A stretch of DNA of 27,883 nucleotides from the NCBI GenBank assembly GCA_003483645.1, contig DMYM01000431.1, positions 1-27,883 on the forward strand, read 5' to 3'. Positions 2 through 24,251 of this stretch are shown here, piece by piece; position 1 is the stretch's first letter; the number at the start of each line of letters is the position of its first letter. A program made the position numbers and the translations under genes. Below the pieces are notes generated by a model that saw only the letters and a list, made by a program, of their open reading frames with translations, made no database searches and had not been told where the DNA came from. This stretch comes from Verrucomicrobiales bacterium. GTDB lineage: Bacteria > Verrucomicrobiota > Verrucomicrobiia > Verrucomicrobiales > Akkermansiaceae.

Positions 2-310
2 CTCAACTCTCCCAGCCTGCCCTTCGTTATCGCGGGAAGTGGATTTGGCGGATGGGAACAGAAGATCGACCGCCGTCTCATGATCATGAAGGCACAGGAA
101 GCCATCGCCAAACACGACGAATTCAAGGGTGACACCCGCTATGTGGAAACGCGGAGCTTCTTCCGCGATGGGCCCGTCTCTCCCCGCCCCATCCGCTACC
201 ACTGGTGTTGCAATGCCGAGAGCTACTGGTTGATCGGGGAGGGTATGGGCCGGGCCATGGTGGAACTGCTGGGCGGGCCCAAGGCTCCCCCTAATGCTGC
301 AGGGCCCTGA
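2..310 (+). CDS. C-terminal part of a sialate O-acetylesterase-like (SASA/SGNH-type) protein, 5'-truncated by the window
   Basis: The frame is open from base 2 (LNSPSLPFVIAGSGFGG...) to TGA at 308-310. The ending RYHWCCNAESYWLIGEGMGRAM matches the YHW-x-x-NAE-x-Y-x-LIG-x-x-MG-x-AM ending typical of SASA-domain esterases. The ATG at 80 is internal. Confidence 0.65.
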   Translation, partial: LNSPSLPFVIAGSGFGGWEQKIDRRLMIMKAQEAIAKHDEFKGDTRYVETRSFFRDGPVSPRPIRYHWCCNAESYWLIGEGMGRAMVELLGGPKAPPNAAGP

Positions 311-392
311 TCCGCGCGGACACGGACATCAATCGGGTCAAGACATCTTCTCCGCGGCTTGCCTCCCGCCGTTCCTCTGCTTGGATGGCCGG

Positions 393-1172
393 GTGCTGAT
401 CACCCTGACCACCGACTTCGGGACCAGCGACTGGTTTACAGGCTCCATGAAGGGTGTGATCTCAGGGATTGCCCCGGCCACCCGCATTATTGACATCACG
501 CACCAGATCCCCCCTGGTGACCTGGTTGACGGAGCCTTCACCCTGGCTGCCTCCTCGCCCTACTTCCCTGCCGGCACGATCCACGTCGCAGTGGTCGACC
601 CGGGAGTGGGGAGTGCCCGCCGGGCCATCACCCTGCGCACCCGGCGCGCCATTTTCATCGGCCCCGATAACGGTGTGCTCTCCTGGGCCGTACGGGAACA
701 GCAGATCGAGGAAGTGCGGATCCTCAACAATGAGGACTGGTTCCTTGAACCGGTAAGTCACACCTTCCACGGGCGCGACATCTTCGCCCCTGCTGCTGCC
801 CGGCTAGCAACCGGTGCCCGCTTCGATGAGGCAGGAGATACGATTGAGGATTACGTGCGTCTCCCCTGGCCCGAAGTGGTGGAAGGGGACAACGAGGTGC
901 GGGGCGAAATTGTCCACATCGATCGCTTCGGCAATGCCATTTCCAATCTGCCCGCCTCCGTCTTCCCCCGGGAATTGCTGGATAGCGGTGGCATCACCAC
1001 AATGTGCGGCGGACGCCCCGCTCCGCTCCGTCATTGCTATACGGACGTCCACCTCGGCAAGACTCTTGCCATCCTGGGATCAAGCGATCTGCTTGAACTC
1101 GCCATCAATGGCGATGACTTCGCCGAACAGAATGGCATCGAAGTAGGATCGCCAGTGCGTGCCAAATGGTAG
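393..1172 (+). CDS. SAM hydroxide adenosyltransferase (DUF62; SAM-dependent chlorinase/fluorinase superfamily)
   Basis: Motifs ITLTTDFG, IIDITH, VAVVDPGVGSARR, GPDNG, TFHGRDIFAP and HIDRFGNAISN are present, with the Asp-Arg-His triad intact. I chose the GTG at 393 as start because family homology begins there; TTG at 381 is an alternative, and the ATG at 294 overlaps the upstream gene. Confidence 0.92.
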   Translation: MLITLTTDFGTSDWFTGSMKGVISGIAPATRIIDITHQIPPGDLVDGAFTLAASSPYFPAGTIHVAVVDPGVGSARRAITLRTRRAIFIGPDNGVLSWAVREQQIEEVRILNNEDWFLEPVSHTFHGRDIFAPAAARLATGARFDEAGDTIEDYVRLPWPEVVEGDNEVRGEIVHIDRFGNAISNLPASVFPRELLDSGGITTMCGGRPAPLRHCYTDVHLGKTLAILGSSDLLELAINGDDFAEQNGIEVGSPVRAKW

Positions 1173-1196
1173 GGGCGGGGGAACCCCACCCGTCCT
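1172..1196. terminator. GC-rich hairpin between convergent genes, possible terminator
   Basis: GGGCGGG(1173-1179) pairs with CCCGTCC(1189-1195) with one G-U pair, continued by GG/CC around an AACC loop. It lies in the 36-nt gap between two converging stop codons. There is no U-tract on either side. Confidence 0.3.
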
Positions 1197-1208
1197 GCCA
1201 TGATCCCG

Positions 1209-4200
1209 CTACTCCACGCGGGCACGGTAGAATCGCCGCTCCTGACCAGCTGCGGCGGGATCAAGTTGCGAAGTGGACGTCCCCGTCGCCAGAATGCCTG
1301 AGGACGCGTCGACCCAGTTCACCATGTCCGAACTCGCTTCCAGGGTGTAACTCTTGCCCGGAACACTGTTCCAGGTGGCCGTCAAGAATCCGGTAACCGG
1401 ATTTCTGCTCAACCTGATGATCCTGAAGATGGACGAAGCATCGAGGGGGTCAGTCCCTGCCTGCACTTCCGCACCGTCCAGAGCCCCGTCAGAGTCGGTG
1501 TCGGGTCTGAGCGGATTCGTTCCTGCCAGGGCCTCATCGGTGTCACTCAATCCATCCCCGTCAGTGTCGAGGAGAACTCCCGCTCCCGGAGTTCCCCCCA
1601 CCACTGCACTGGCTCGCCAGTTGGCCGGGTCGTTATAGTCACCCTCGATATCGATGACTTCGAGGGAAGGTCCCTGTCCGGCCGGCGTGACCGGCCAGGG
1701 TGCCACCGTATCGTAGTTGAAATCATGAATGATGTTGCCTGCGTCGTCGCGCAGAACAATTTTCTCTCCGCTGTTGGACAGAGATCCCCCCGTCCACTCA
1801 CCCATGATGCGGACGGCACCTCCGTATTCCGCCTGGAAGGTGGCAGTATCGGCCACCAGCACGGCATGTTCGTCAGGATCGAGAGTGAGCGCACTGAAGG
1901 TGAAGGCATCGAAGGGATCGCCCCCGTCGAAACTCACCCCGTTGAGATTCAACGGAGTGTTGCCGGTGTTGACCAACTCAACGAACTCCAGATTGATCCC
2001 TCCTGTGGGCTCATACATGAGCTCCGTGACCCGGAGATGGTTTACCGCCGGACTGGATACCGAGGGATCGATCACCATGACATAGTCGAACCTGAAGCGG
2101 GCCGCCCGCGCGGTATCATTGGCTGCAAAAAGGCCACCCCGGCCCATCGTGGAGGCGACCGGCATGACACGCGAGTAAATCGTGGTCCAGACACCAGGCT
2201 CCAGGCGTCGCTCAAAACGCAGATTTCTGCCCTCGCGCCGGATGCGGATCACCGCCGTTCCCCCGGAGTAACTCCGGTTGTAGAGCTGCGTATAGGAGCC
2301 TCCGCTGGAGCGTTTGATCCGCAGGGCGTTGCCATCCTCCATGCCGAAGACATACCGTGATGAGGTCGCGCCTTCCTGAATCTCCAGGATGAGACCGGCT
2401 ATGAAGTCCCCGCGCTGAACCGAATCGAGCGTCATGTCCGTCTGCAGCGTGAAGTCCACACTGTCCGGAACCTCACGCCACATGACGGGGTGGGAGGGAT
2501 TGGATCCGGTGAGGGGCGTGGGCGCGCTGTCTCCCAGCTTCACTACCAGGTTACCCGGCCGGTCATTGAGGGAATACCATGAGTCTCCGCTGTAGTCATG
2601 ACGAACCTCCATATTCTCAAGGGTCCACCAACTCTCCAGCAGGCGGTCGGTGAAGGAGCTCCAGCCGGAATCGGCATAAACAGAGACCTCCCGCATTTCC
2701 GAGTATCCTTCTCCGTTGGCATCGGAGGCGGTTACCGTGATCTCGTAGAGACCCGGGTTCCCGAAGATCACTTCAGAGGTATCGACGGTGGGATTTGTCA
2801 GGATCGCTCCAGCTTCCGGATTCACGCTCCACGAAAAGCTCAGATTGGATCCTTCCGGATCGTAACTGCCGGTGGCATCCAGATCGAGGTCATCGGCCAC
2901 GGACACGTTGAAGGAGTCCGGCCTGGAATCCACCTCCACCACAGGACGGGCATTCCCGGACTTGTTCACGTTGACGGCATCGGTGTGCACCACGTTTCCG
3001 TCGCGATCGAGTCCCTGGACGGTGAGAGTCGTGAGACCCTGCCTGAGCTGGATCCCGTTGATCGTCCAGCTCGTTTCCGAGTTGAAAACCCACTCCGCCT
3101 CCGGATGACCAAGAACCCCCACTGTGAAAACGTTGTAGGGGCTGGTGCCTCTGAGGGAGAGAGTCTGTCCGCTGGTGCTGATTGTCCCGCCTCCGCCCGA
3201 AGTCACGTTGAAGGCCATGTTCAGCGAAGTCGATCCGATCGCACTGCTCCGGGCGTTGTTGACCCGGCTGTTGTTGAAGTTGTTGTAGGTGGAGGCATTT
3301 GCCGAGTAGGAACCGGAAGCCGCCTCCTCCAGGCTCAGCCAGGTGCTCAACCGTCCCGACCCGGCGGTGTACTTGTCGACCATCTCACCGATGTAATAAT
3401 TGAGACGCTGCCGGACATATGGCTTATAGAAAAAGTTGCGCACGCCCGCCAGGTTTCCGATGAACTCTGCCGAGGTGCTGCCGAAGGTGAGATCGGAATC
3501 CCACTGAGCCAGCTGCCACTTGCCATCGGAGTAACGCCGCAGGAAATACCCGTTTTTCCCACGGTTCCGCGTGATATTATCCCAGTCATCGACCCAGCCG
3601 CGGACCGCCGCATTGGCAGCCATCAGATCAATATCCGCCATTCGTTCGATCTCCGCCCGGGAGAAAGTGTCCTGGCCGACCAACTCCACCCAGTTGATGA
3701 ATGAGGAATAATCATACTCGTCCTCCCGGGAACGTTTGATCCACTCCGCATGGTAACGTTCCGGTTCACGGGTTCCCTTGTAACTCCAATCCGCATTCCT
3801 CTGTCCCCGGCTCCAACTGTCCTCAAACCACCACTCGTCGTCGATGCGGTAAAGCTCCCCTTTTTCACCCTGATCCCAGTTGCGCTTGAGAAAATCGTTG
3901 GCGTTCGGTTCCACATCTTCACGCAGGGAGGCACTGCTTCCGTTGACAATCACGCGAACAAACTCGTTCTCGTTATAGGCATGCCCGAGGAGGTATAGCC
4001 AGTAACGGATGATCCGGTTGTGATAACCCCTGCTGCCTCCCGCGTCATTGTCAATCGAGCGCCGGGTGTAACCCCGGAAACGGCGATCCCTCGGTGATTT
4101 CCACTTGGCACGCGCTAGGCTCTCCCCTTCCGATCGCGTCCACGGACTCCCGCTCTTGCGGATCTCCGAGTTGTAGATGATCTCACTCTCATTGCTGATG

Positions 4201-7200
4201 AAGGTCGCATTGAAATACTGGTTCGAGAGACGTGGGAAGGCATAGTTGTTCTTTGACTCTCCCGATGCTCCCCCGCCGAGATAGTCGATATCACGGGCCG
4301 AGATAACAAACCTCTGCGTGCGCAGGTCACTTGCGATATTGCTGTTATCTACCACGTAGAGGGCTGGTGCCTCGGGCGCCAGTCGGGGCACATGATTCGT
4401 GCCTGCCGCAGAGGCGGCCTCCACGTAAAACTGCGTAATGGTGTTATCGCTGCGGGAAGGAAGCGTCGTGCTGTAGATTCCGTCACTTGCCACCAGGTCG
4501 CCATTGACACCGCTGTCATTCATGACCTGGGTTCCCCATGAATTGCTCCAGGTAGCGTTGTCCAGCCGATGCCGCAGGTTGACGGAAGTCAGAGGACGCA
4601 CAGACTCCACCCGCGCCGTGATGGTAACTGAATCCGAGGAGGTGGGCACCGCCGGGTTGTGCATGATCTCCGAGAGGGTGGGCAAGGGACTGGCTTCCGT
4701 CCGGGAGTTGGGCGCTCCCGGCGTCCCCAGGTTCCGCGGAATGGGTAACCGGATGATATCCCCGAAGCTGCGGTCCCAGGTATGCACAATCAGGGTGGAT
4801 TTACCATACACCCAGCGGGCCTGGCACTCCCACACCAGGTTGTCATTGTCTGAGATGGAGGTCACATCAATCTCACAGCGATTCGCCTTCACGTCTCCGT
4901 GACCGGTCGAGACGATGCGGAATTCGTTTCCGGACATGTAACTCTGATAATGAGTGCCCTGGCACAGCCAGCCGTTGGAGGCATTTCCGTTGGTAACCAC
5001 TCTTTCTCCGTCATTCGGAAGGAAGTTGGACCCGGCTCCGTTCTCTTTCAGGCTCATGTTGCGCAGAGCGATGTGGGCATCTCCCACCGCATGCACGTGG
5101 AGTTCCTTGTAGTTGGAACTGCCTCCCCGCGAGTTGTTCTGCAGGTACTGGTCGGAAATGGTGTAGGTCTGGAAGGTTGATTTTCCGGACTCATCAGAGT
5201 CGGCCCAGGCGCTCGGCCTTGAGTTGTCCATGTCGGGATTCCGCAACTCGAGACTGCTTCCAAGTCCACCCGCCAGGAAGGGCCATTCACCACCGGTGGC
5301 ATAGTGCACTTCGTCCGCAAGGTTGCCCCACGAGTCAATGAGCCGGACACACTCTCCACTGTTGCTGAGATTATCGGTGAAGGGACCGACGACGCGTGCA
5401 CCCGGATGGGCCTGCCTGGTATACTCCGGGTTGGAGGCAACCACCAGGTATTCCCCCGGAGCAAGGCTCGTGCCACCGGGAAAGGCGTATCTTACTCCCT
5501 CGTCGATTCTCCATCCCTCCAGATTGATTGCAGAGCCAGAGTTGTTGTACAGTTCAATATACTCCCCATCCCGCTGGCTCGAAGGGGGCTCCACCATCAA
5601 CTCGGTCATCACGATGCCCGTTTCCCTGGTGGGATTGTTGGTGGCGTCCTGACTTCCCACCACCGAAGAGTAAAACTCCCCCGATCCATCCGGGTAGGCA
5701 GCCGAGAAATCCCTCCCGGACGCCTGCTTCACAACGGCGGCATCGATCACACGGTTTCCTGCGTCAATGAGCCAGAGCACTTCGTCGCCACCTCCCGTGG
5801 AGAAGGAAACCGGCCAACTCCTGACCCCCTGGGACGAAATCGATCCAGTGAGGGGAACCTTGTCGGTGAAATCACGGCGACTCGAAAGAAAGAGCCCCGA
5901 CATGTTCTGGGTGGCCCTGCTGCCATTATGGAGTTCGATCCAGTCGATATCCCCTCCTGCATCGTAGTGCACTTCATTGATGGCAAGCACGGTCCCGAGT
6001 TCCGAGGCACTTGAGTTGGCCGCATCCCGCGTGGGCGAGGTGAAAAGGAACCAGCTGCCTGATCCTGATGGCTTGCGTCCCAGGGAACGTCCATCGATGG
6101 GCATGGCGGTATCGACCCCGTTCACGATGGTGGACCCGTCACTCTGGGTCAGATAGACCACGGTGGGACTGCCCACCGTGAGGCCGGCCTCGGAGTAGCC
6201 GAGGGAGGCGATGCCGCCCGCCGGCACGTTGAGCGCACCCGGGATCCGGTACTTGGTCAGGTTGCTCACCGAGTCGCTGAGATACCAGCCCCCGATATCC
6301 ATGTCCGTCCCGGTGGGGTTGTAGAACTCCACGAATCCCGTTCCGTTCTGCGGAAGGACCTCGTTGATCACGATGCTCGGTGCGTTCGGGGTGGAAATAT
6401 TCACGCGCGCGCCGAAGACCACGTCCGAACTGGTTGTTCCCGTCTGATGCACCTCAACCGCGAGAACATTGGTGCCCACCACCAGCGGCGGAGCACTACT
6501 GGTAACAACGGCTTCCTCTTCGCTGGCATCACTTATGGTGCGACCGGCGGTCGTGGTATAGCTTGCGCCCTCGCTCACTCCAATGCCGCCCAGCCACTGA
6601 CCGTTGAGCCAGAAGCCCGCCCCATCATCGAGAATGGTGTCGATCGAGATACCCGTGCCCGCCACCGTGCCGTTGAAATCAAAGGTGGTCCGGAAGTAGT
6701 AGGTGATGATGTCGTTTCCCGGAGAGTTGGGGTTTTCGAACGGGGTTGTAATTCCAGGAGAGGGGACCGCTGAAGTCTCGTAGCCGTAGAGTCCCGGACC
6801 GCTGTCCCAACCTGCATCGTTGAAACCCACCTCTTTCCAGGATGTGCCCTGGTTGGATCCGTCATCGAGATACTTCCAGCTGTGGTCGTAATTGATGTAG
6901 GGCGCCCCTACCGAAAGATCGACTTCCGGATTGGAATAGGGTTCCTCGGCGGCGGTCGGTTCGCCTGTTCCAGGAGTTCCCCCGGATGCGGTACTAGGCC
7001 CCCAGAGACGATAGTCATCGATGGCATAGTTGTCGTTCTTCAAAACCAGACTGTGCCCACCACCATCCGCTTCAATGGACCACGGTGCCCGGTCATCGTA
7101 GCGGAGAGTACATACCATCGCACCGTTCTTGTCGCGCAGGTTGATCCGCTCGCCTTCGTTGGCCATGGAACCGGTCCAGGGACCGAAGACCCTTACCGAT

Positions 7201-7511
7201 CCGGGCAGACTGTAGGCCGACCGGAAGGTAGCGGGATCAACCCCGCAGATCACGATGCGTTCCCAGGGTTTGAGAAAATTGCTCTGGTGGTCGCCATCAT
7301 TGTATCCCGGGAAGTCGTATTCGACCGCCCCGCGCATACGCCACTGCGCGATATCAAAGACCGTCGCGGTGAGGTTCTCGACTTCCAGAAACTCGTAGAG
7401 GCCTGCCGGGGGATGATACATCACCTCGCTGATGACAACCTGCTCTGCCTTAATCTGTGAGAACGAACCAACTGCCATCAGGGCAGTGGGAATCAACAGG
7501 TGGATTTTCAT
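1209..7511 (-). CDS. Giant secreted lamin-tail-domain / CotH-like kinase protein, paralog 1 (about 2100 aa)
   Basis: Signal peptide MKIHLLIPTALMAVGSFSQIKA-EQ. Five LTD-like units (VISEVMYHP, VINEVLP, AINEVHY, VMTELMVEP, RVTELMYEP), a galactose-binding-like module (WKYLDDGSNQGTSW...YYFRTTF), a CotH-like core (DDWDN...KNGYF...WQLAQWDSDLTFG), PKD-like and ConA-like modules, DTDGDG repeats and a C-terminal ...FYRARVE. Start reassigned from 7604 to the ATG at 7511. Confidence 0.88.
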   Translation of the reverse strand: MKIHLLIPTALMAVGSFSQIKAEQVVISEVMYHPPAGLYEFLEVENLTATVFDIAQWRMRGAVEYDFPGYNDGDHQSNFLKPWERIVICGVDPATFRSAYSLPGSVRVFGPWTGSMANEGERINLRDKNGAMVCTLRYDDRAPWSIEADGGGHSLVLKNDNYAIDDYRLWGPSTASGGTPGTGEPTAAEEPYSNPEVDLSVGAPYINYDHSWKYLDDGSNQGTSWKEVGFNDAGWDSGPGLYGYETSAVPSPGITTPFENPNSPGNDIITYYFRTTFDFNGTVAGTGISIDTILDDGAGFWLNGQWLGGIGVSEGASYTTTAGRTISDASEEEAVVTSSAPPLVVGTNVLAVEVHQTGTTSSDVVFGARVNISTPNAPSIVINEVLPQNGTGFVEFYNPTGTDMDIGGWYLSDSVSNLTKYRIPGALNVPAGGIASLGYSEAGLTVGSPTVVYLTQSDGSTIVNGVDTAMPIDGRSLGRKPSGSGSWFLFTSPTRDAANSSASELGTVLAINEVHYDAGGDIDWIELHNGSRATQNMSGLFLSSRRDFTDKVPLTGSISSQGVRSWPVSFSTGGGDEVLWLIDAGNRVIDAAVVKQASGRDFSAAYPDGSGEFYSSVVGSQDATNNPTRETGIVMTELMVEPPSSQRDGEYIELYNNSGSAINLEGWRIDEGVRYAFPGGTSLAPGEYLVVASNPEYTRQAHPGARVVGPFTDNLSNSGECVRLIDSWGNLADEVHYATGGEWPFLAGGLGSSLELRNPDMDNSRPSAWADSDESGKSTFQTYTISDQYLQNNSRGGSSNYKELHVHAVGDAHIALRNMSLKENGAGSNFLPNDGERVVTNGNASNGWLCQGTHYQSYMSGNEFRIVSTGHGDVKANRCEIDVTSISDNDNLVWECQARWVYGKSTLIVHTWDRSFGDIIRLPIPRNLGTPGAPNSRTEASPLPTLSEIMHNPAVPTSSDSVTITARVESVRPLTSVNLRHRLDNATWSNSWGTQVMNDSGVNGDLVASDGIYSTTLPSRSDNTITQFYVEAASAAGTNHVPRLAPEAPALYVVDNSNIASDLRTQRFVISARDIDYLGGGASGESKNNYAFPRLSNQYFNATFISNESEIIYNSEIRKSGSPWTRSEGESLARAKWKSPRDRRFRGYTRRSIDNDAGGSRGYHNRIIRYWLYLLGHAYNENEFVRVIVNGSSASLREDVEPNANDFLKRNWDQGEKGELYRIDDEWWFEDSWSRGQRNADWSYKGTREPERYHAEWIKRSREDEYDYSSFINWVELVGQDTFSRAEIERMADIDLMAANAAVRGWVDDWDNITRNRGKNGYFLRRYSDGKWQLAQWDSDLTFGSTSAEFIGNLAGVRNFFYKPYVRQRLNYYIGEMVDKYTAGSGRLSTWLSLEEAASGSYSANASTYNNFNNSRVNNARSSAIGSTSLNMAFNVTSGGGGTISTSGQTLSLRGTSPYNVFTVGVLGHPEAEWVFNSETSWTINGIQLRQGLTTLTVQGLDRDGNVVHTDAVNVNKSGNARPVVEVDSRPDSFNVSVADDLDLDATGSYDPEGSNLSFSWSVNPEAGAILTNPTVDTSEVIFGNPGLYEITVTASDANGEGYSEMREVSVYADSGWSSFTDRLLESWWTLENMEVRHDYSGDSWYSLNDRPGNLVVKLGDSAPTPLTGSNPSHPVMWREVPDSVDFTLQTDMTLDSVQRGDFIAGLILEIQEGATSSRYVFGMEDGNALRIKRSSGGSYTQLYNRSYSGGTAVIRIRREGRNLRFERRLEPGVWTTIYSRVMPVASTMGRGGLFAANDTARAARFRFDYVMVIDPSVSSPAVNHLRVTELMYEPTGGINLEFVELVNTGNTPLNLNGVSFDGGDPFDAFTFSALTLDPDEHAVLVADTATFQAEYGGAVRIMGEWTGGSLSNSGEKIVLRDDAGNIIHDFNYDTVAPWPVTPAGQGPSLEVIDIEGDYNDPANWRASAVVGGTPGAGVLLDTDGDGLSDTDEALAGTNPLRPDTDSDGALDGAEVQAGTDPLDASSIFRIIRLSRNPVTGFLTATWNSVPGKSYTLEASSDMVNWVDASSGILATGTSTSQLDPAAAGQERRFYRARVE

Positions 7512-7718
7512 GTGGAATTCTCTTGAGAGAGGTGCCGTTCTGACACTACACCCCGTTACAATATCGTCACTCTGCACTCGGGCAAAGTTGAATGATCCGG
7601 CCAATTCCTGCTAATCCAGCCGTCTTTACCCCAGAAGAGGCACCCGGGCAGAGCCCCAAGACAACGGCATAACCCTGGCTACAAGCGGCGCCTCCACCGC
7701 TGCCCTGCCTCCCCTGCA

Positions 7719-10700
7719 CTACTCGACAATCACGCGATAGAAGAGTTCGGCGGCCCCTGCTCCGTCATGAGGAATCATGGTGGTGCCCTCCGTGGCCTCC
7801 ACGGTAGAAACATCCGTCCAACTTCCCTCCGTCAGGTCCGGGCTCACCTGCAGGGTGTAGCTCCGACCCGGAACACTGTTCCATGTCGCCTGGGTGGCAG
7901 CTCCCACGCGCACCACTTCGATAAGGCGAAAGACCGAGAGACGGTCCAGGGGATCGGTCCCGGCAGCCACCTCTGCGCCATCGAGCGCGCCATCGCCATC
8001 GGTGTCCGGATTGAGAGGATCCGTTCCGGCCGCCGCCTCTTCACTATCGTCCAGTCCATCATTATCCGGGTCACCGAGGGACACTTCACCGGGCGTCCCT
8101 CCCACCGCCACGCTGGCACGCCAGTTGGCAGGATCATTATAGTTTCCTTCCGTGTTGATCACTTCCAGGGAAGCCCCCTGTCCATCCGCTTCGATCGGCC
8201 AGGACGGTTGATCCGAATACTGGAAATCGTGGATGATGTCTCCCCGCGGATCAATGAGCACGATCGACTCGCCGCCATTGCTCATGCTGCCATCCGCCCA
8301 TGCAGCCAGAACCCGGATGCTCCCCCCGTAGATGGCCTCGAAGTCAAGTTCGTCGGCCACCACCACAGCCACCTCACCAGGCGCCAGGTCGAGATCACCG
8401 AAAACCAGTTCGGCAAAGGGATCGCCGTCCTGGAACTGTACCTGAGAGAGATTGATGGTGGAGTTCCCGGTATTCATCAGTTCGATGAACTCCAGATCGA
8501 ACCCGTTGCCGAGATCGAGAGCATTGTACATGATCTCCGTGATCCGCAGTGAGTCCACGGCCGGACCGATCGCCGAGGCATCTGCCACCATGAAGTAATC
8601 GAACTCAAAACGAGCCATGATAGGCGCGGGCGTGGAGGCAAAGATTCCCGTCTGCGTGAGGGTGGATTCGGCCGCCATCCCCGCCACGTGAAGGGACTCC
8701 CAGACACCCGGGCTGGTTCGATAGTCGAAATGGAGGTCATCCCCCACCCGCCGGATGCGGACCACCGCGCTGTCCTTGACCCAGGAGATGGTGGCCAGGC
8801 GCGTCTCGGTCGTTCCCACGATTTTCCTCACCCGGAGGAAGTCTCCGTTTTCCATGCCCACCGCATAAATCACCTGCTGCCCGTTCTCCTGCACCTTGAG
8901 GATCAGGCCTGCGATGAATCCTCCCTGCTGAATGTTGGAAAGCTTCACGTCGGTCTGCAGCAGGATGTCGCCGGTCCCGGAAACATCACGCCAGAGGACC
9001 GGATAGGCCGGTGCCTGACTGCGCATCGACTTGGCCACGTCATCGTTCAGTTTGAGGACCAACTGACCCGGTCGATCACCGAGAGAGTACCAGGCGCTCC
9101 CGCTGTAATCATGACGCACTTCCACGTTCTCTTCGGTCCACGCCTCCGAGAGCGTCTCGTCGGTGAAGGGGTGCCAGCCGGATTCCGCGTAAACTGCAAT
9201 CTGCCGGGTGGCCACCGTCTCGCGCTGGTCGCCATCTTCCACCGTTGCGGTAAGGAGATAGAGACCCGGTTGCGGAAACTGAACGTTAACGCGCTCCGGA
9301 GACGGATTGTTCAGGACCGCCCCTTGATCTACTTCCCAGGAGAAGGTGAGGTCCGTGCCCTCCGGGTCAAAACTCGCACTCGCGTCCACCACCAGGGTAT
9401 CGTGCATGCCGATGTTCAAGGAAGCCGGCGTACTGTTGAGATCCACGACTGGAGGTGCGTTTCCGGTCTTGTTGACTCTGAAATTGTCACTGGCCACTAT
9501 CAGGCCTTCCGAATCGAGCGCCTCGAACTCAAGGTCGTTGCGCCCTTCCCTCAGGTAGATGCCCGAAACCGTCCACTCAGCCTGGTCGGTGAACTGGATC
9601 ACCGCCTCCGGGTGCCCGACCAGGCGGATATCGAAAGCCCGGTGATTGCTTGTCCCGTTCAGGTCTATGACATTCTCCGAAGTGCTGGAGGGGCCACTCA
9701 CTTCAAAGGGCGCGTTGGAGACCGCGCTCCCAATCTCGGTGTTCATGGCATAGTTCACCCGCCCGTTGTTGAAGTTGTGGTACCTGCTCGGGTTGATGGA
9801 GACTCTCCTGTTGGAGCGCGTTTCCAGGTCAAACCAGGTCTCCAGGCGCTCGGAAACCTTGGTGTACTTTTCCACCATCTCACCGATGTAGTAGTTCACC
9901 CGCTGTTCGACGTAGGGCTTATAGAAGAAGTTGCGCACGCCCGGAAGGCCCCCGATGAAGGGGGCCGAGGTATTCCCAAAGGTGAGATCGGAGTCCCACT
10001 GCAGCAGGATCCACTTGCCGTCGCTGTACTTGCGCAGGAAATAGCCGTTCTTGCCCCGGTTGCGGGTAAGGGTATCCCAGTCGTCGATCCAGCCCCGCAC
10101 CACTGCATTGGCTGCCATCATATCGATATCCGCCATGCGCTCCAGTTCCTCGCGGGTGAAGCGGTTCTGCCCCACCGAAAAGACCCAGTTGATGAAGGAC
10201 CCGTAATCGTATTCATCCTCCCGGGAACGTTTCATCCACTCGGCGTGGTACATGTTGGGCTCAACACTGCGACCGTCCACTCCCCAGTCGGCATTCTCCT
10301 GGGCGCGGCCCCAACCGTCGTCGAACCACCACTCGTCATCGATACGGTAAAGCTCCCCCTTCTCTCCCTGCTCCCAGTTGCGTTTCAGGAAGTCGTTGGC
10401 GTTTGTCTCCACGTCTTCCCGGATCATTGCTGGTCCGTTGTTGATCACGATTCGAACGAACTCGTTTTCATTCGAGGGATGCCCAAGGAGATAGAGCCAG
10501 TAGCGCGCCAGACGGTTGTTGTGGGACCGACCTGCCACCGGGTCGTCATCGATCGCACGGCGGGACCAGCCCCGGTAACGCTTGTCCCGGGGACTCTTCC
10601 ACTTGAGGTTCTTCCCCTGCGAGGTGCTGAAGTTGTCGGCGCGCTGCCACGGACTCCCGGCCTTGCGAAACTCGGCATTGTAGATGACGTGCCGCTCGTT

Positions 10701-13073
10701 GGCGATGAAGGTGCAGTCGAAGAACTGGTTGGAGAGGCGGGGGAAGGCATAGTTGTAGGAGGAACCCTGTCCCGTATTCCCCAGGGCCTGCACGCTGCGG
10801 GCAGACAGGATAAAGCGCTGGCTCCGCAGATCCCGAGGGACTGCGGTGGTATCGACAATGAACATGGCTGGTCGCGCCGGCGCCAGACTCGGCATCACGG
10901 TGGCATCTCCGCTCCCGTTGTCGGTCTCCACGTAGAACTGCGCAATCGTGCCATCCGAGGTGTACTGGTTCAGGGTGGCCGTATAGATTCCGTCTCCCGC
11001 CACATTGTCGCCGTTGGTGCCATCATCCACCATGAGGGTCGTGCTCCAGGAGGAATTCTGGTTCGTGCTGTCGAGACGATGGCGCAGGTTGACGGTGGGC
11101 GCGGTGGCAGAATCCACTTTCACTGTGACCTCCACCGGATTGCCACGCGGAACGGCCGGACTGTGAATGAGCCCGCTCAGAGTAGGCACTGCCGAGGAAA
11201 TCAGCGCCGAGTTGGGTGCTCCCGCGGTCCCCAGATCCCTGGGCACGGGCAGACGCAGCACCCCACCGAAGGAACGGTCCCAAGTGTGCACGATCACGGT
11301 GGGCTTTCCGTAGACCCACCGGGCCTCGCACGCAAATGTCAGGGAATCCGATCTGTTCATCCCGGTCACGTCGATCTCCACCCGGTTGGCCTTGATGTCC
11401 CCGTGACCAGTCGAGACAAGATGAAACTCACGTCCCTCCATGTGGCTGAGGTGCTGGGTCCCCTGGCAGAGCCATCCGACTGTTCCCTGGCCGTTGTTGC
11501 TGACCCGCTCCCCGTTGCTCGGCAGCAGATTGGGTCCCACCCCCCTCACGGAAAAGTTCATGTTCCGCATTGCGATCTGGCAATCGCCCACGCCATGCAT
11601 GTGCAACTCCTTATAGCTGCTCTCCCCGCCCATCGTACGCAACCGGTCGTAACGGTCAGTGATGGCAAAGCTCGTCCACTCTCCCTTCTGTGACTCGTCG
11701 GAATCCCTCCAGGCAGTGGGGACGGAGTTGTCCATCTCCGGGTGACGCAGTTCGAGGGAACTGCCGAGGCCGCCCGCTTTCTCGGGCCAGTCACCGCCGG
11801 TATGATAGTGGACTTCGTCCACCAGGTTGCCCCAGGCATCCTCAATGCGGAGGAGTTCGTTGTTATTGTTCAGGTTGCCGCTATACTGCCCGATGATGCG
11901 GGCCTGTGGGAAGGCGGCCCCGGTAATGCGCTGATTGGCGGCAATGATGACATGCTCGCCGGGGTCGATCACAGCCCCAGCCGGGAAGCGGAAGCTCACT
12001 CCCTCCGAAATCCGCCAGCCACTCATGTCCACGCCGGAACCTCCCTTGTTGTAAAGCTCGATGAACTCACCATCACGATGCCCGGAGGGCGGCTCTAGCA
12101 TGAGTTCGTTGATGACCACCCCGGTCTCGCGATCCGGATTGTTCGGAGCGTCTCGGCTTCCCTGGGCAGAGGAGTAAAAGTCGGTCGAGCCATCGGGATA
12201 AGCCGCGGCGTGATCACGCCCCGTATCCCGGTCATAATCCACCGCACTACGCACTACATTGTTGGCATCGACGAGGAAGGCCACGCTGTTGTTGGAGAAC
12301 CCCACATCGAAGCTGAGGAAGCCATTCCCCGGCACTGATCCGGAGATATTCACCTTGTCGCCAAAGCCACGAGCCCCGCTCAGGAAGAAACCGTCCACAC
12401 TCTGGGGCGTCTGGGAGCTGTTGTGGATTTCAATCCAGTCGACATCCCCATTCTCGTCGAAATGCACCTCATTGATGAAGAGCGCGGAAACCACCGCACT
12501 GTCGGAGTTGCCGGGAAATCCTCCCACCCTTGAACTGGGACCCCAGCTCCGGTAGTCATCAGTAGCGCGCTCGCTATCTGTCAGGACCAGACTGTGCCCC
12601 GCACCGTCGGGAGCAACAGGCCAGGGGTGCTCGTCGTCGTAGCGCACCGACGCCATGATGACTCCGTTCTTGTCCCGCAACGTGACCCGCTCACCCGCGT
12701 TGTCCAGGGAACCGGTCCATGGACCGAACACCTGGATCGCTTCCGATACGCCGTAGGCGGCGCGGAAGGCGGCAGGATCACCCTCACACACCACGATCTT
12801 CCGTCGACCGATAAGGAAGGAATCCGTGGCGGCGGCGGGATCGAATCCGGGGAAGGTATAACTGACACCGCCAGTCACCTCCCATTCCGCAATATCAAAG
12901 ACGGTAGAGGTAAGATTATCGATCTCGATGAATTCCGGAAGCGGCGTCTCACCCTCCGGAACCATCTGCGGGTGATACATGATCTCCCTGATTACAACCT
13001 GCTCGGCCCAAAGGGACTGCGTGAACAAGGGGACACAAAGGAACGATATGGTGATCGCAAGGGAATGTTTCAT
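7719..13073 (-). CDS. Giant secreted lamin-tail-domain / CotH-like kinase protein, paralog 2 (about 1784 aa)
   Basis: Signal peptide MKHSLAITISFLCVPLFTQSLWA-EQ. Colinear with paralog 1 except for a missing block of about 316 aa. Kinase core DDWDT...KNGYF...WILLQWDSDLTFG, DxDxDG repeats and a C-terminal ...FYRVIVE. Start reassigned from 13154 to the ATG at 13073. Confidence 0.88.
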   Translation of the reverse strand: MKHSLAITISFLCVPLFTQSLWAEQVVIREIMYHPQMVPEGETPLPEFIEIDNLTSTVFDIAEWEVTGGVSYTFPGFDPAAATDSFLIGRRKIVVCEGDPAAFRAAYGVSEAIQVFGPWTGSLDNAGERVTLRDKNGVIMASVRYDDEHPWPVAPDGAGHSLVLTDSERATDDYRSWGPSSRVGGFPGNSDSAVVSALFINEVHFDENGDVDWIEIHNSSQTPQSVDGFFLSGARGFGDKVNISGSVPGNGFLSFDVGFSNNSVAFLVDANNVVRSAVDYDRDTGRDHAAAYPDGSTDFYSSAQGSRDAPNNPDRETGVVINELMLEPPSGHRDGEFIELYNKGGSGVDMSGWRISEGVSFRFPAGAVIDPGEHVIIAANQRITGAAFPQARIIGQYSGNLNNNNELLRIEDAWGNLVDEVHYHTGGDWPEKAGGLGSSLELRHPEMDNSVPTAWRDSDESQKGEWTSFAITDRYDRLRTMGGESSYKELHMHGVGDCQIAMRNMNFSVRGVGPNLLPSNGERVSNNGQGTVGWLCQGTQHLSHMEGREFHLVSTGHGDIKANRVEIDVTGMNRSDSLTFACEARWVYGKPTVIVHTWDRSFGGVLRLPVPRDLGTAGAPNSALISSAVPTLSGLIHSPAVPRGNPVEVTVKVDSATAPTVNLRHRLDSTNQNSSWSTTLMVDDGTNGDNVAGDGIYTATLNQYTSDGTIAQFYVETDNGSGDATVMPSLAPARPAMFIVDTTAVPRDLRSQRFILSARSVQALGNTGQGSSYNYAFPRLSNQFFDCTFIANERHVIYNAEFRKAGSPWQRADNFSTSQGKNLKWKSPRDKRYRGWSRRAIDDDPVAGRSHNNRLARYWLYLLGHPSNENEFVRIVINNGPAMIREDVETNANDFLKRNWEQGEKGELYRIDDEWWFDDGWGRAQENADWGVDGRSVEPNMYHAEWMKRSREDEYDYGSFINWVFSVGQNRFTREELERMADIDMMAANAVVRGWIDDWDTLTRNRGKNGYFLRKYSDGKWILLQWDSDLTFGNTSAPFIGGLPGVRNFFYKPYVEQRVNYYIGEMVEKYTKVSERLETWFDLETRSNRRVSINPSRYHNFNNGRVNYAMNTEIGSAVSNAPFEVSGPSSTSENVIDLNGTSNHRAFDIRLVGHPEAVIQFTDQAEWTVSGIYLREGRNDLEFEALDSEGLIVASDNFRVNKTGNAPPVVDLNSTPASLNIGMHDTLVVDASASFDPEGTDLTFSWEVDQGAVLNNPSPERVNVQFPQPGLYLLTATVEDGDQRETVATRQIAVYAESGWHPFTDETLSEAWTEENVEVRHDYSGSAWYSLGDRPGQLVLKLNDDVAKSMRSQAPAYPVLWRDVSGTGDILLQTDVKLSNIQQGGFIAGLILKVQENGQQVIYAVGMENGDFLRVRKIVGTTETRLATISWVKDSAVVRIRRVGDDLHFDYRTSPGVWESLHVAGMAAESTLTQTGIFASTPAPIMARFEFDYFMVADASAIGPAVDSLRITEIMYNALDLGNGFDLEFIELMNTGNSTINLSQVQFQDGDPFAELVFGDLDLAPGEVAVVVADELDFEAIYGGSIRVLAAWADGSMSNGGESIVLIDPRGDIIHDFQYSDQPSWPIEADGQGASLEVINTEGNYNDPANWRASVAVGGTPGEVSLGDPDNDGLDDSEEAAAGTDPLNPDTDGDGALDGAEVAAGTDPLDRLSVFRLIEVVRVGAATQATWNSVPGRSYTLQVSPDLTEGSWTDVSTVEATEGTTMIPHDGAGAAELFYRVIVE

Positions 13074-13319
13074 CTTTCTGGGATCCCAAAAAAGGGGGTG
13101 ATGGGTTTCGGCCGCCCAGTGGCCTGGCTTTATTTTTTCCGGACAAACCCTCATGTAAAGGTGGAAAGAGGACAGATTCGAAAAGAGTTCTTTTGAACAG
13201 TTCCCCAGGCCCGGTCGGAACCAGAATACCTGTCACCCATCCACTCCCCTCCCGCAAGGACTTCTTGCAATAGCCTGAAGAAAAACAAATTTGGCAGGCG
13301 CCCCTCCTATCCGCCCATG

Positions 13320-13339
13320 ACTCACGTGAACGAGTGAGT
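13320..13339. promoter_or_regulatory. Candidate operator ACTCAC-N8-GTGAGT in a divergent promoter region
   Basis: Perfect 6-bp inverted repeat that also contains the palindrome TCACGTGA (13322-13329). The same TCAC-N8-GTGA core recurs at 27343-27358 upstream of the other DUF1549 gene. Confidence 0.4.
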
Positions 13340-13416
13340 GGGAAATTCGGGTTGAGATGAGATAGGGATCATTTAACACCAAGTACGCGGAAGACCGACC
13401 GACTCCGCTCCCAGTC

Positions 13417-15885
13417 ATGAGATTTCCGATCCTGCTCCCGCGTACGGGCGCCCTCCAGGGCACCTTATTGTTCGCCGCCCTCATCTTCACTGCCCCCTCT
13501 GCCACCCTCGGCCAGAAGATCGACTTCGCCCGCGAGGTGCTCCCCATTCTCTCCAACAAGTGCTTCGTCTGCCACGGACCGGACACCAAGAAAAAGAAAC
13601 AGCTCCGTCTCGATTCCTACGAGGATGCCACCGCTGACCGCGGCGGCTATCACGCTATCGATCCCAACAATCCCGCCGAGAGTGAGATCCTCGCACGGCT
13701 TCACGACAAGGAAGATCCCATGCCGCCCGAGGATGCCGAGAAGCAACTGCCCGATGCCGAACGGAAAATCCTCATACAGTGGGTGAAGGAGGGAGGAACC
13801 TACGCCAGGCACTGGTCCTTCGTTGCACCCCGACGCACCGATCCATCCAAGGGTGCCACTTCAAATGGTCCAATCGACCGCTTCGTGGAATCCAAGCTCA
13901 AGGAAAAGTCCGATGGCAAGGTGGGTTTCGCCCCGGGGGCTGATCGCGCCACCCTCGCCCGGCGGGCCGCTCTTACTCTGACTGGCCTCCCGCCAGAGCC
14001 CACTGAGCTCGCCACTTTCCTTGCCGACGACAAAGCCGACGCCTATCCCCGTTTTCTCGACAAGCTCATGCAAAGCCCGCGTTACGGCGAGCATCAGGCC
14101 CGCTATTGGCTCGACGCCGTACGCTACGGCGACACCCATGGACTCCACCTCGACAACAAGCGTGGTATCTATCCCTATCGCGACTGGATCGTGCGAGCCT
14201 TCAACAAGAACCTTCCGCTCGACGATTTCATCCTGTGGCAACTGGCTGGTGATCTCCTTCCCAATCCCACCATCGAACAGAACGTGGCCACTGGCTTCGT
14301 CCGCATGAACCCCACCACCGCAGAGGGCGGAGCCATCCCGGCTGAGTTTCAGTGCAAGAACAATTTCGATCGCACCGAGACGCTCGGCACCATCCTCCTC
14401 GGCATGACAATGACCTGCGCCCGTTGTCACACCCACAAGTATGACCCCATCACGCAAACCGAGTATTACCAGCTCCTCGCCTTCTTCAACTCCACTTCGG
14501 AGTCCCCCATGGATGGCAACAAATACGAATACGGGCCGATCATGAAGGTTCCGGCTGATCAGGAAGCCTGGGATGAATGGGAGGGATTGACCTCGGAACG
14601 CAAAGGCCTCCTGCAGGAAGTGGCCAGTCAGCACCCTGGCCTGCTGACCGGTGGGGAGAAGGAGGCATGGGAGAAGTCACCGGCCCGTGACAAACTGAAC
14701 CGGATTGCAGACCCCAAGGGTCCCTTCAAGGATTCACCGCTCCATCAGAAGGCCTCAACCCTGGCCAAGCGCTTCAACGAATCAGAGAAGCGCTTCACTC
14801 CCACCCTCGTGGCTCGCGAACTGGGCAAGCCTCGTCCTACCAAGATGCTCCTGCGCGGCGAGTACGACCGCCCTGTCGGCGAACCGGTGCAACCCGATAT
14901 CCCTTCGGCCATGGGAGCGCTTCCCGAGAATGCCCCGCGCAATCGCCTCGGACTCGCCCAGTGGCTCGTCTCCCGTGACAATCCGCTCGTCGCCCGCGTC
15001 CTCGTCAACCGTATCTGGCAACGGGTCTTCGGTGAGGCTATCGTGCGCTCGCCCGAGGACTTCGGCCTCCAGGGCAAGCAACCGACCCACCCGGAACTGC
15101 TCGACTGGCTCGCGGTCGAACTGCAGGAAAGCGGTTGGAATCTGCAGCACATGCTCCGTCTCATCCTCACCAGCAAGACCTTCAGACAGCAGTCCGCCCA
15201 CCGGAAGAGCGCCTTTGAAGATCCCGAAAACCTCTGGTACGCCCGGGGACCCAGCTACCGCCTCGACGCAGAGGTTATTCGCGACATGGCTCTCTGGTCC
15301 AGCAAGCTCCTCGACGGACACATGGGTGGGGAAGGAGTGAAGCCCTACCAGCCCGCCGGCCTCTGGAAGGCGCTCATGCACCCTGGCAGCAACACCAAGA
15401 ACTACGTCGCCGACAAGGGGACCAAACTCTACCGCCGCAGCCTCTACGTTTACTGGAAACGCACCAGCCCCCATCCCATGATGATCCTCTTTGACGCCCC
15501 TGACCGCGAGTCGAGTTGTGTCCGCCGCTCGCGCACCAACACTTCCCTGCAGTCACTGGGCCTTCTCAATGAAACGCAGCGCATTGAAATGTCCCGCATC
15601 CTGGCGGAGCGCCTTGTTACCGAGGCCAAGGACGACGACAGTCGTCTGGATCTCCTCTTCACCCTGGTGGCCAGTCGGACGCCCAACGACGCCGAGAGAA
15701 AAGCCTGTGACGTCCTGCTGGAAAAGATGCAGACCCGCTACCAGTCCGCGAAGGAAGATGCCCTTGCCCTCCTCTCCACCGGCAACTCTCCCCGTAACGA
15801 AGCTCTCAACCCCGCCGAGGTGGCAGCCTGGAGCCAGGTGGCGACTACGGTACTGGCAAGCGATGTGGCGCTCCTGCTCCACTGA
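13417..15885 (+). CDS. PSD1 and planctomycete cytochrome C domain-containing protein (cytochrome c + DUF1549 + DUF1553)
   Basis: Signal peptide, then IDFAREVLPILSNKCFVCHGPD (CxxCH). DUF1549 motifs HWSF, RRAALTLTGLPP, YGEHQARYWLDAVRYGDT and CARCHTHKYDP. DUF1553 motifs RLGLAQWL, NRIWQ, PTHPELLDWLA and YRRSLY. Confidence 0.95.
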   Translation: MRFPILLPRTGALQGTLLFAALIFTAPSATLGQKIDFAREVLPILSNKCFVCHGPDTKKKKQLRLDSYEDATADRGGYHAIDPNNPAESEILARLHDKEDPMPPEDAEKQLPDAERKILIQWVKEGGTYARHWSFVAPRRTDPSKGATSNGPIDRFVESKLKEKSDGKVGFAPGADRATLARRAALTLTGLPPEPTELATFLADDKADAYPRFLDKLMQSPRYGEHQARYWLDAVRYGDTHGLHLDNKRGIYPYRDWIVRAFNKNLPLDDFILWQLAGDLLPNPTIEQNVATGFVRMNPTTAEGGAIPAEFQCKNNFDRTETLGTILLGMTMTCARCHTHKYDPITQTEYYQLLAFFNSTSESPMDGNKYEYGPIMKVPADQEAWDEWEGLTSERKGLLQEVASQHPGLLTGGEKEAWEKSPARDKLNRIADPKGPFKDSPLHQKASTLAKRFNESEKRFTPTLVARELGKPRPTKMLLRGEYDRPVGEPVQPDIPSAMGALPENAPRNRLGLAQWLVSRDNPLVARVLVNRIWQRVFGEAIVRSPEDFGLQGKQPTHPELLDWLAVELQESGWNLQHMLRLILTSKTFRQQSAHRKSAFEDPENLWYARGPSYRLDAEVIRDMALWSSKLLDGHMGGEGVKPYQPAGLWKALMHPGSNTKNYVADKGTKLYRRSLYVYWKRTSPHPMMILFDAPDRESSCVRRSRTNTSLQSLGLLNETQRIEMSRILAERLVTEAKDDDSRLDLLFTLVASRTPNDAERKACDVLLEKMQTRYQSAKEDALALLSTGNSPRNEALNPAEVAAWSQVATTVLASDVALLLH

Positions 15886-15927
15886 CTCTTCCGCCCACAC
15901 TCCAGAAACTGAAAACCATGCCCTGAC

Positions 15928-17424: not shown

Positions 17425-17618
17425 GGATTACCGGAGGGCAGGCGTCCGCCGGATACCAACCGTCCCGGGCATGGTCACGGCGGGAATGAATCGTCATTGA
17501 ACAGACCGGGCAGGTCAGGGTCTGGAAACTGTTCACTGCTGGCGGCTCACTGAAACTGCCCTTCTCAGCTTTACACCTCTCCTTCCACGCTCGATACTGC
17601 AGAATCACCTTCGCGGAC

Positions 17619-21950: not shown

Positions 21951-21978
21951 CGCGGCAGGGAATCAGGGGTTGCGCAGG

Positions 21979-22647
21979 TCATGAGACCGCCTTCTTTTCG
22001 GTGATGCCGGCCTTGAATTTCTGGAAGCGTACCCAGACTTCCCCCTTCTCCAGCTTCTCCTGGTCCACTTCCAGTTCATCGAGACCACGCTTGGCCTGAG
22101 TGTTATCAGGAGCCAGGCTGCCATCCGTCCGGAAGCTGCTCTCGTGACAGGGGCAGTAGTAATGTGCACCATGAGCACCTTCCCTGCGGTACTCCACTGC
22201 ACATCCGGCATGCGGGCAACTCGCACTGAAGACCACGACCTTCTTCTCCGCGAAACGCTGGGCATAGACCAGCCCCAGCGGAAGATCCTTGTAGGTGGTC
22301 CAGGCATCGGTCTTGTCCGCGATCACCTTGAAGGCCTGAGGAGGCCCACCCACTTCCAGGCTGTCCAGGGTTGTCAGACGCGCCACGATCCCGCCCGCCT
22401 TCCTGCTGAAGAGCGGACTGAGCACCACCCGCAGCCCTACCACGGTGGGCGCCGCCACGATCGCACCCCCGAGCGCGATACTTAAGAATTCCCGTCGTAG
22501 GGGACTTGCATCCACGGGGGACGCAGGTTCACCCGGATCCTCTCCTCCCTCTTTCAGCTTTTCTTGCGCCCCCCCATCCCGCACCCCGCGAAGTGCCTGA
22601 GACATCGGCACATCGGCAATATCGTCATCTGGATCGTTAATGGCCAT
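21979..22647 (-). CDS. qcrA: Rieske [2Fe-2S] subunit of the cytochrome bc complex
   Basis: Cluster boxes CPHAGC and CPCHESSF; twin-arginine anchor LRREFLSIALGG; 28 nt upstream of cytochrome b. The start could alternatively be the Met at aa 15. Confidence 0.92.
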   Translation of the reverse strand: MAINDPDDDIADVPMSQALRGVRDGGAQEKLKEGGEDPGEPASPVDASPLRREFLSIALGGAIVAAPTVVGLRVVLSPLFSRKAGGIVARLTTLDSLEVGGPPQAFKVIADKTDAWTTYKDLPLGLVYAQRFAEKKVVVFSASCPHAGCAVEYRREGAHGAHYYCPCHESSFRTDGSLAPDNTQAKRGLDELEVDQEKLEKGEVWVRFQKFKAGITEKKAVS

Positions 22648-22793
22648 CTTATGTTCCGAATGATACGGCCGGAACTCTACCGCGATGTCCCCTTCATCTC
22701 AAGGCAGCAGCGTGATCGTGCGAGCACAAATCCCAGTCCGAAGATCTTCCAATGCAGATTCTCTCCAATCGGAGATCTCAATCCTGAAATCCA

Positions 22794-24107: not shown

Positions 24108-24114
24108 TGATGGT

Positions 24115-24145
24115 ATTCGATGAATTTCAGGGCTTGAGGTCAAGC
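24115..24145 (-). promoter_or_regulatory. Candidate sigma70-type promoter with a palindrome over the -35 box
   Basis: The minus strand reads TTGACC(24143-24138)-17 nt-TCGAAT(24120-24115)-7 nt-ATG. The palindrome GCTTGA-GG-TCAAGC spans 24132-24145. The -10 box is a weak match. Confidence 0.3.
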
Positions 24146-24251
24146 TGTTGGAGCATCGACTCCCGTCACATGAATCCGCTACGAGGCCAAGCCAGGGCCG
24201 AACAGAAGAATCCGTCTTACCATTGAGCGCCCGGTGGAGTCGCTCCAACTG

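Follow-up and report, generated by a model that had tools for sequence, protein, structure and literature searches.

The window analysed here, a 27,883-nucleotide stretch of contig DMYM01000431.1 from a Verrucomicrobiales bacterium, carries on its minus strand two very long neighbouring genes, A and B, whose products each contain a CotH-type domain. The interpretation that we favour, with a probability of roughly 0.55, is that A and B are Sec-exported, multi-module proteins with an intact CotH phosphotransferase core, that they dock on a polymer, and that they belong to a diversified family which is possibly supplied by polyphosphate (polyP). This interpretation draws on the fold and conserved residues of the core, the modules around it, the size and history of the family in the genus Roseibacillus, and the distribution of a polyP-polymerase domain across Verrucomicrobiota.

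Two exported paralogues encoded in tandem

The two minus-strand open reading frames (ORFs) of great length in the window span 1209..7604 and 7719..13154. The downstream gene, A (7511..1209), encodes 2100 aa from an ATG at 7511, and the upstream gene, B (13073..7719), encodes 1784 aa from an ATG at 13073. BLASTP aligns their products at 52% identity over 1778 colinear columns, in agreement with an initial annotation of this DNA that had described two adjacent, co-oriented and colinear paralogues of these lengths. In a global alignment, a block of ~305 residues (A 201-505) is absent from B, and the remaining modules pair one to one. A and B are genes and not chance ORFs, because they contain Pfam domains, have homologues in the hundreds and show ratios of nonsynonymous to synonymous substitution (dN/dS) of 0.05-0.16 in every domain when compared with ten congeneric orthologues, a mark of strong purifying selection along their whole length.

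Judged by eye, both proteins carry a Sec-type signal peptide, as had been proposed: an n-region with a Lys or a short basic stretch is followed by a hydrophobic core and an A-x-A-like site (IKA followed by EQ, and LWA followed by EQ), and no convincing lipobox was seen by the same inspection. Long antisense ORFs are present as well; one of them, opposite gene B, is a 1001-aa open frame (8688-11693, plus strand) that is typical of the strand opposite a long gene in high-G+C DNA (60% G+C) and is unsupported as a gene.

The central domain is a divergent CotH-type core

The CotH-fold core occupies residues ~1046-1440 of A (3192..4376, minus strand), as delimited by Pfam, profile, model, Foldseek and VIA, and residues ~732-1126 of B (9696..10880, minus strand), as delimited by Pfam and alignment. 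Against a cut-off of 23.8 bits, the CotH family (PF08757) scores 40.5 bits in A and 38.6 bits in B, covering only profile positions 62-220 of 322; in a scan of the whole genome the two scored 43.3 and 42.5 bits. A phmmer search of the Protein Data Bank (PDB) with a single core sequence gave no relevant match, and a profile was therefore needed. The profile of 69 cores matches Bacillus cereus CotH (5jd9/5jda) with an E-value of 1.2e-18 over chain residues 51-356.

A structural model of the A core was generated with AlphaFold2 (AF2) from the 69-core alignment, with a predicted local distance difference test score (pLDDT) of 92.4 and a predicted template modelling score (pTM) of 0.91. Foldseek matches this model to 5jd9 with an E-value of 3.9e-14 and template modelling (TM) scores of 0.63/0.74 (0.74 by target). 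VIA-align superposes it over the whole chain, with a Z-score of 30.8 and a root-mean-square deviation (rmsd) of 2.7 Å over 328 of 358 residues. The CotH-like core of the initial annotation is thus borne out both by a Pfam score above the cut-off and by a strong superposition on the Bacillus protein, the two comparisons that had been suggested for it. The next folds after CotH, at VIA Z-scores of 8.6-11, are PI4KII, MavQ, actin-fragmin kinase, CtkA and Fam20C.

An exhaustive search of 1.84 billion representatives with the A core yielded only 525 clusters at E ≤ 1e-3, of which 94 reached E ≤ 1e-30. From these comparisons, A/B-type cores appear to be a distinct, fairly small and divergent CotH subfamily. 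The core is also the most constrained module of the two proteins, with a dN/dS of 0.047, 91% identity among orthologues and 65% identity between A and B.

Catalytic and nucleotide-binding residues are conserved

Conservation was counted in the alignment of 69 cores, whose identity to A ranges from 22 to 69%. The catalytic segment of A (3492..3590, minus strand) was located by alignment and comprises DDWD (D1311), RGKN (N1320) and QWDSD (W1337, D1338); the aligned segment of B lies at 9987-10085 on the same strand. Three residues, D268, N277 and D295 in core numbering, are invariant in 69/69 cores; they correspond to D1311, N1320 and D1338 in A and to D1000, N1009 and D1027 in B. In the profile alignment this trio pairs with an Asp, Asn and Asp of B. 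cereus CotH that are spaced 5 and 23 residues apart, a spacing that matches D228 and D251 of the B. subtilis protein. The D228Q and D251A mutants of B. subtilis CotH are inactive (PMC7821199).

CotH is known to keep the equivalents of PKA D166/N171/D184 and to sandwich the adenine between Tyr142 and Trp245 (PMC12189002). By sequence alignment only, Y178 (Y1221 in A) aligns with B. cereus Tyr142 and is aromatic in 60/69 cores, and W294 (W1337 in A) aligns with Trp245 and is Trp in 68/69; A and B both have Tyr and Trp at these columns. Together with the model, this conservation points to an intact, apparently competent CotH-type phosphotransferase domain. The three computational points on which the kinase assignment had been made to depend are an HMM match, a structural match and a complete ATP site; the first two are present, and the ATP-site residues are complete at the level of sequence. 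A regular expression for D...N...WD, a crude method that was used for no pseudokinase claim, found the pattern in at least 15 other paralogue ORFs.

The catalytic loop is four residues longer than in Bacillus CotH (D-x8-N), with a near-invariant R274-G275-K276 ahead of the Asn. The candidate beta3 lysine is variable: K or R stands at core position 93 in 57/69 sequences and at position 95 in 48/69.

Modules surrounding the core

Gene A (1209..7511, minus strand) encodes, in order, a signal peptide, an LTD, a jelly-roll, three further LTDs, a CBM4_9-like domain, an Ig-like domain, the CotH core, a beta-sandwich, a PKD domain, a ConA-like region, another LTD, TSP3 repeats and a C-terminal domain. 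Gene B (7719..13073, minus strand) encodes the same order without A residues 201-505, a block that the alignment places at 5997..6911 (minus strand) and that consists of an N-terminal beta-sandwich and one LTD. The proposed Pfam scan returned CotH, LTD and PKD, all three above their cut-offs. LTD (PF00932) matches five stretches in A (208.6 bits in total for the family) and four in B (169.4 bits), as expected from the several LTD units first noted in each protein. PKD (PF00801; A 2676..2951, B 9189-9458, minus strand) passes marginally, with scores of 25.8 and 29.3 bits where 23.5 are required. The TSP3-type Ca-binding repeats (A 1437..1616, B 7941-8120, minus strand) match TSP3_bac (PF18884), whose scores of 54.0 and 54.6 bits exceed its cut-off of 25; this substantiates the Ca2+-type repeats noted before.

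The segment ahead of the kinase core, A 744-1054, was modelled with AlphaFold at a pLDDT of 88.5. Residues 199-311 of this model form an Ig/FN3-type sandwich, which lies directly before the core (A 4377..4706, B 10881-11210, minus strand). Its best match is the Ig-like domain of Porphyromonas gingivalis PPAD (Foldseek E 5.5e-6, VIA Z 13.0), and NCBIfam recognises within it a choice_anch_X ('choice-of-anchor X') motif; the Ig-like unit of the initial annotation is confirmed by this model. The other half of the segment is the jelly-roll (A 4707..5276, B 11211-11780, minus strand), which is all-beta in the model and 62% identical between A and B. A fold search with the combined jelly-roll and Ig model gave Ig/FN3 matches only, for residues 199-311. 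CBM_4_9 (PF02018) matches 8 of 34 aligned homologous jelly-roll segments (best E 5.6e-8), and the look-alikes of the jelly-roll found with a language model are CBM_4_9 clusters (score 0.95, 162-168 shared features). The jelly-roll block seen at the outset is therefore upheld by its all-beta model and through its homologues, and we read it as a probable diverged CBM4/9-type module.

The ConA-like region (A 2046..2675, B 8559-9188, minus strand) fared less well. It finds support in GH43_C2 (20.3 bits against 22.7, E 4.9e-4) and DUF1349 (20.0 bits against 32.4, E 5.7e-4), yet only below threshold in each case, so that the ConA-like module of the initial annotation stays a candidate.

The last ~75 residues of the two proteins are 46% identical in the global alignment and form a C-terminal domain of ~58-75 aa with no Pfam model (A 1212..1436, B 7722-7940, minus strand; delimited by alignment and an iterated HMM). 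The common C-terminal domain had been correctly recognised, and it extends well beyond the pair: in the same genome, a metagenome-assembled genome (MAG) that is 71% complete, the iterated HMM detects 31 ORFs that carry it, at least 29 of them besides A and B. One possible role is lineage-specific anchoring or sorting. Its motif resembles W-x-S-x-x-G-x-x-Y ... S-x-D-L ... W ... F-Y-R-V. The domain ends 3-10 residues ahead of the stop codon in ~17 ORFs and is followed by a conserved tail of ~175 residues in ~9. Carriers lie on contigs C403, C462, C147, C219, C169, C107, C171, C509 and others of the genome, and the look-alikes found with the language model are unnamed, mostly verrucomicrobial clusters.

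A and B belong to an expanded family in Roseibacillus

The genome from which the window derives is a 2.93-Mb Roseibacillus MAG (Verrucomicrobiales) in 541 contigs. PF08757 matches it at 27 places, in ~25 ORFs, a count made in an incomplete assembly. Most of these matches outscore A and B by far, reaching 176 bits, and lie in frames of 900-2500 aa. An HMM of the 69-core alignment assigns ~8 ORFs of the genome to the A/B-type subfamily, and LTD matches number 80, mostly within CotH ORFs. The pattern recurs across the genus, with 19-51 CotH matches per genome in 16 of 18 other Roseibacillus species, and the matches number 30-39 in a second genus of the order. On several congener contigs, two or three CotH genes stand in a row. 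LTD-CotH proteins are a large, old and diversified exported family, of which A and B are two ordinary members. The novelty that the initial annotation had sought in the tandem arrangement is not sustained, given the 19-51 CotH matches per congener genome and the frequency of other tandem clusters. No report of a Roseibacillus expansion was found in the literature examined on CotH in Verrucomicrobia, Planctomycetes and Roseibacillus.

The B-then-A tandem is present in 12/12 Roseibacillus loci with enough upstream flank, and orthologues within the genus are 85-98% identical for A and 76-95% identical for B. Other genera have a single copy of 2070-2900 aa that is nearer A (~68%) than B (~59%), and the 305-residue block absent from B is present in these single-copy outgroup genes. 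The suggested search for tandem pairs in Verrucomicrobiota thus gave a divided result, with the B-A pair throughout Roseibacillus and a single A-like copy elsewhere. These comparisons show that the pair resulted from a tandem duplication, specific to Roseibacillus, of a gene that is conserved in single copy in Verrucomicrobiales; the duplication took place within the genus or at its base. Since the single-copy outgroup genes are nearer A and carry the 305-residue block, A retains the ancestral architecture, and B is the derived copy, with two N-terminal modules lost.

Some further features of the family were observed. Many single-copy outgroup orthologues are ~2890-2910 aa long, ~780 aa longer than A, and module content therefore varies within the family. 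In the close relative UBA7890, the A orthologue (6788-13497 of its locus) is split into overlapping frames of 1524 and 897 aa, through either a frameshift or an assembly error. Larger Roseibacillus genomes hold more CotH matches, with 19-27 at 3.5-3.9 Mb and 44-51 at 4.6-5.7 Mb; just 0 and 3 matches were seen in two congeners. Several MAGs are heavily fragmented, perhaps in part because of this repeat-like gene family.

A polyphosphate-polymerase domain accompanies CotH

Exactly one match to VTC, the polyP-polymerase domain, was found in the genome of the window, on contig C129. There, an LTD-CHB_HEX_C-CotH gene (2-1879, minus strand) is followed by genes for VTC (2053-2904, plus strand), a DUF4956 membrane protein (2908-3669, plus strand) and a protein with a prepilin-type N-methylation motif (3673-4500, plus strand). 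The VTC and DUF4956 genes are divergent from the CotH gene and lie ~170 bp from it.

The association was examined in 150 Verrucomicrobiota genomes of at least 85% completeness. CotH was found in 36 genomes and VTC in 25; all 25 genomes with VTC also carry CotH, and VTC is absent from each of the 114 genomes that lack CotH, counts that come from related genomes and are not phylogenetically independent. In at least 15 genomes of this sample, matches to VTC and CotH lie no more than ~4 kb apart on one contig. The control genomes with VTC, those of Bacteroides thetaiotaomicron, Corynebacterium glutamicum and Methanosarcina acetivorans, are each CotH-positive as well. In streptococci, clostridia and bifidobacteria, cotH, a polyP polymerase, DUF4956 and DUF4832 are accessory genes beside pel operons (10.1101/768473). 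Because VTC occurs only in CotH-bearing Verrucomicrobiota, often beside CotH, exported polyP is a plausible supply route: it would be made by VTC, passed outward by DUF4956 and delivered to extracytoplasmic CotH enzymes.

Discussion

According to the interpretation that we favour, A and B would be exported by Sec to the envelope or to the outside of the cell. The LTD, CBM4_9-like, Ig, PKD and ConA-like modules would attach the enzyme to a polymer that is probably rich in glycan, such as a glycan itself, a glycoprotein or the surface of its own cell. The protein would be kept at the cell surface by its TSP3 Ca2+ repeats and C-terminal domain. The core may then move a phosphoryl group onto a hydroxyl of a protein or glycan, and polyP exported by VTC/DUF4956 may be the energy supply outside the cytoplasm. 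By analogy with CAZyme expansions, 20-50 differently decorated LTD-CotH proteins per genome look like a diversified substrate-targeting repertoire, not a dedicated two-partner system. A more specific version holds that the 20-50 LTD-CotH proteins of each Roseibacillus genome are extracellular phosphotransferases, each directed by its own modules to a separate algal or self polymer and all fuelled by polyP via VTC/DUF4956; we regard this full version as tentative and distinctly unlikely.

Several observations weigh against the favoured interpretation. For the core, the candidate beta3 lysine is not invariant, and the chemistry may differ from that of Bacillus CotH because of the subfamily-specific four-residue insertion with its near-invariant RGK in the catalytic loop. 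For the docking modules, the A and B jelly-rolls themselves have no CBM_4_9 (PF02018) match at E ≤ 1, and the ConA-like region stays under both Pfam thresholds. For the polyP supply, VTC and DUF4956 are not adjacent to A and B; VTC is missing from 11 of the CotH-positive genomes in the phylum sample, as well as from three Roseibacillus genomes (86-96% complete); the co-occurrence counts overstate independence; and the kept adenine-binding residues suggest that the direct donor is a nucleotide and not polyP. Reviews, moreover, still call the extracellular function of CotH undefined.

A core of the same fold could also carry out other chemistry, namely glycan or lipid phosphorylation, nucleotidyl transfer, or polyP-dependent transfer or attachment. 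The altered RGKN loop and the variable beta3 Lys are compatible with this, as are the lipid and atypical kinases that follow CotH in the fold search at Z 8.6-11, the CBM-type module fused directly upstream of the Ig-core unit, the confinement of the VTC polyP polymerase to CotH genomes and the occurrence of cotH and polyP-polymerase genes beside exopolysaccharide operons. The only characterised CotH members, however, are protein Ser kinases, the adenine-sandwich residues are kept, and no direct evidence points to an alternative substrate; we consider such chemistry unlikely, though worth keeping in view. Somewhat less probable again is a non-catalytic role, in which the giants would be Ca2+-stiffened adhesion stalks or structural surface proteins and CotH a binding module. 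Ig-like, LTD, PKD and TSP3 modules are typical of adhesins, and ATP is scarce outside cells. In Mucorales, CotH3 and CotH7 bind host receptors as ligands (PMC9973265). A pure binding module would need no catalytic residues, however, and here the D/N/D trio is invariant and the adenine-sandwich Trp is kept in 68 of the 69 cores despite identities as low as 22%, and no other module has a dN/dS as low as that of the core.

The duplicated kinase scaffold of the initial annotation can be read as a dedicated surface protein-phosphorylation system in which the two paralogues act jointly or on two substrates of one pathway. Both copies are kept in tandem at every Roseibacillus locus examined. The 207-bp spacer between B and A (7512..7718, minus strand) contains no promoter-like or terminator-like site on the gene strand, with scan counts that are overall at the level of shuffled sequence, and the lack of a terminator-like site would allow joint transcription. 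Contigs from RNA libraries of three studies include scattered pieces of both genes at 95-100% identity; these contigs are strandless and DNA carry-over is possible, so that they are weak evidence of expression, merely consistent with transcription. None of the RNA-library contigs of the three studies bridges the spacer. Sister genera, moreover, have one copy, the genome has ~25 CotH ORFs, other tandem clusters exist in congeners, and no conserved partner or substrate gene lies nearby. A dedicated pair is therefore very doubtful, and nothing observed points to the two acting together. As a side observation, one RNA-library contig joins position 10059 to 10325, skipping 265 bases in the CotH core of B, and has unlike flanking sequence; the likeliest explanation is that the assembler fused paralogues or strains into a chimera.

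Relation to known systems

Bacillus CotH (B. subtilis; B. cereus PDB 5JD9/5JDA) shares with the A and B cores its whole-chain fold, the Asp/Asn/Asp trio and the Tyr/Trp adenine sandwich. It differs in that identity is only 14%, that Pfam covers A and B partially, that the A/B loop is four residues longer and contains RGK, and that the A/B cores sit inside exported proteins of 1800-2100 aa in a non-spore-former. The spore-coat context is likewise missing: the window contains neither CotB/CotG-type substrates nor sporulation genes, the latter in keeping with the initial annotation. Cellulosomal CotH proteins (Clostridium thermocellum CseP Cthe_0044 and Cthe_0239, the latter 'LTD, LTD, Fn3, CotH'; Ruminiclostridium cellulolyticum Ccel_1101; and those of anaerobic fungi) are also secreted and fused to LTD and beta-sandwich domains. 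They sit amid polysaccharide-targeting machinery, and their function is equally undefined. Unlike them, A and B have no dockerin, are much larger, belong to a divergent CotH subfamily, and carry TSP3 repeats and an unnamed C-terminal domain in place of cellulosome anchoring.

The Gram-positive pel-locus set of cotH, VTC and DUF4956 genes (10.1101/768473) has a parallel in this genome, where VTC-DUF4956 stands beside an LTD-CotH paralogue. It differs in that A and B are not beside VTC, that a single VTC module accompanies 20-50 CotH genes, and that no pel was seen. Among eukaryotic enzymes, Fam20B and POMK are glycan kinases of the secretory pathway. Like Fam20C, they have atypical kinase folds and act outside the cytosol on secreted proteins or glycans. 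The similarity of Fam20C to the A core is a remote one of fold only (Z 8.4-8.6), and these enzymes have lumenal ATP available to them, unlike a protein at the exterior of a marine bacterium.

Proteins that are secreted and contain a CotH domain occur widely, from cellulosomes to gut Bacteroidota, PVC bacteria and Mucorales, and a reaction is known only for the Bacillus spore-coat enzyme; how a kinase works where ATP is absent is an open problem. The A/B locus by itself adds no new principle, and belongs to a known but uncharacterised class of secreted LTD-CotH proteins. What it does show is that a very divergent CotH subfamily still keeps the residues needed for catalysis. In marine Roseibacillus the family takes up a visible share of the genome, at 20-50 CotH genes of ~4-6 kb each, and in the 150-genome sample of Verrucomicrobiota the VTC polyP polymerase occurs solely alongside CotH. 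If true, a polyP-fuelled repertoire would give bacteria an undescribed route to extracellular phosphoryl transfer. Family size and the CotH-VTC association make the role of extracellular CotH kinases somewhat more approachable. Because of this large family, its conserved catalytic residues and the occurrence of VTC only with CotH, cultured Roseibacillus is a reasonable setting in which to learn the role of extracellular CotH enzymes and the source of their fuel.

Genomic neighbourhood

The pair is flanked by SAM_HAT downstream and by PSCyt/PSD1-DUF1501 genes upstream. No substrate or partner gene is conserved beside the pair outside the genus in the compared loci. A functional link to the flanking genes was considered and rejected, since PSCyt/PSD1 shows no synteny beyond the genus and several congeneric loci lack SAM_HAT. 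The remainder of the window (13417-19064, plus strand; 19875-27261, minus strand) has a gene content typical of PVC bacteria: a PSCyt1/PSCyt2/PSD1 protein with two DUF1501 proteins, a cytochrome b/c fusion with a Rieske protein, a DUF502 protein, a GFO/IDH/MocA oxidoreductase, a PfkB kinase and a 657-aa GT4 glycosyltransferase.

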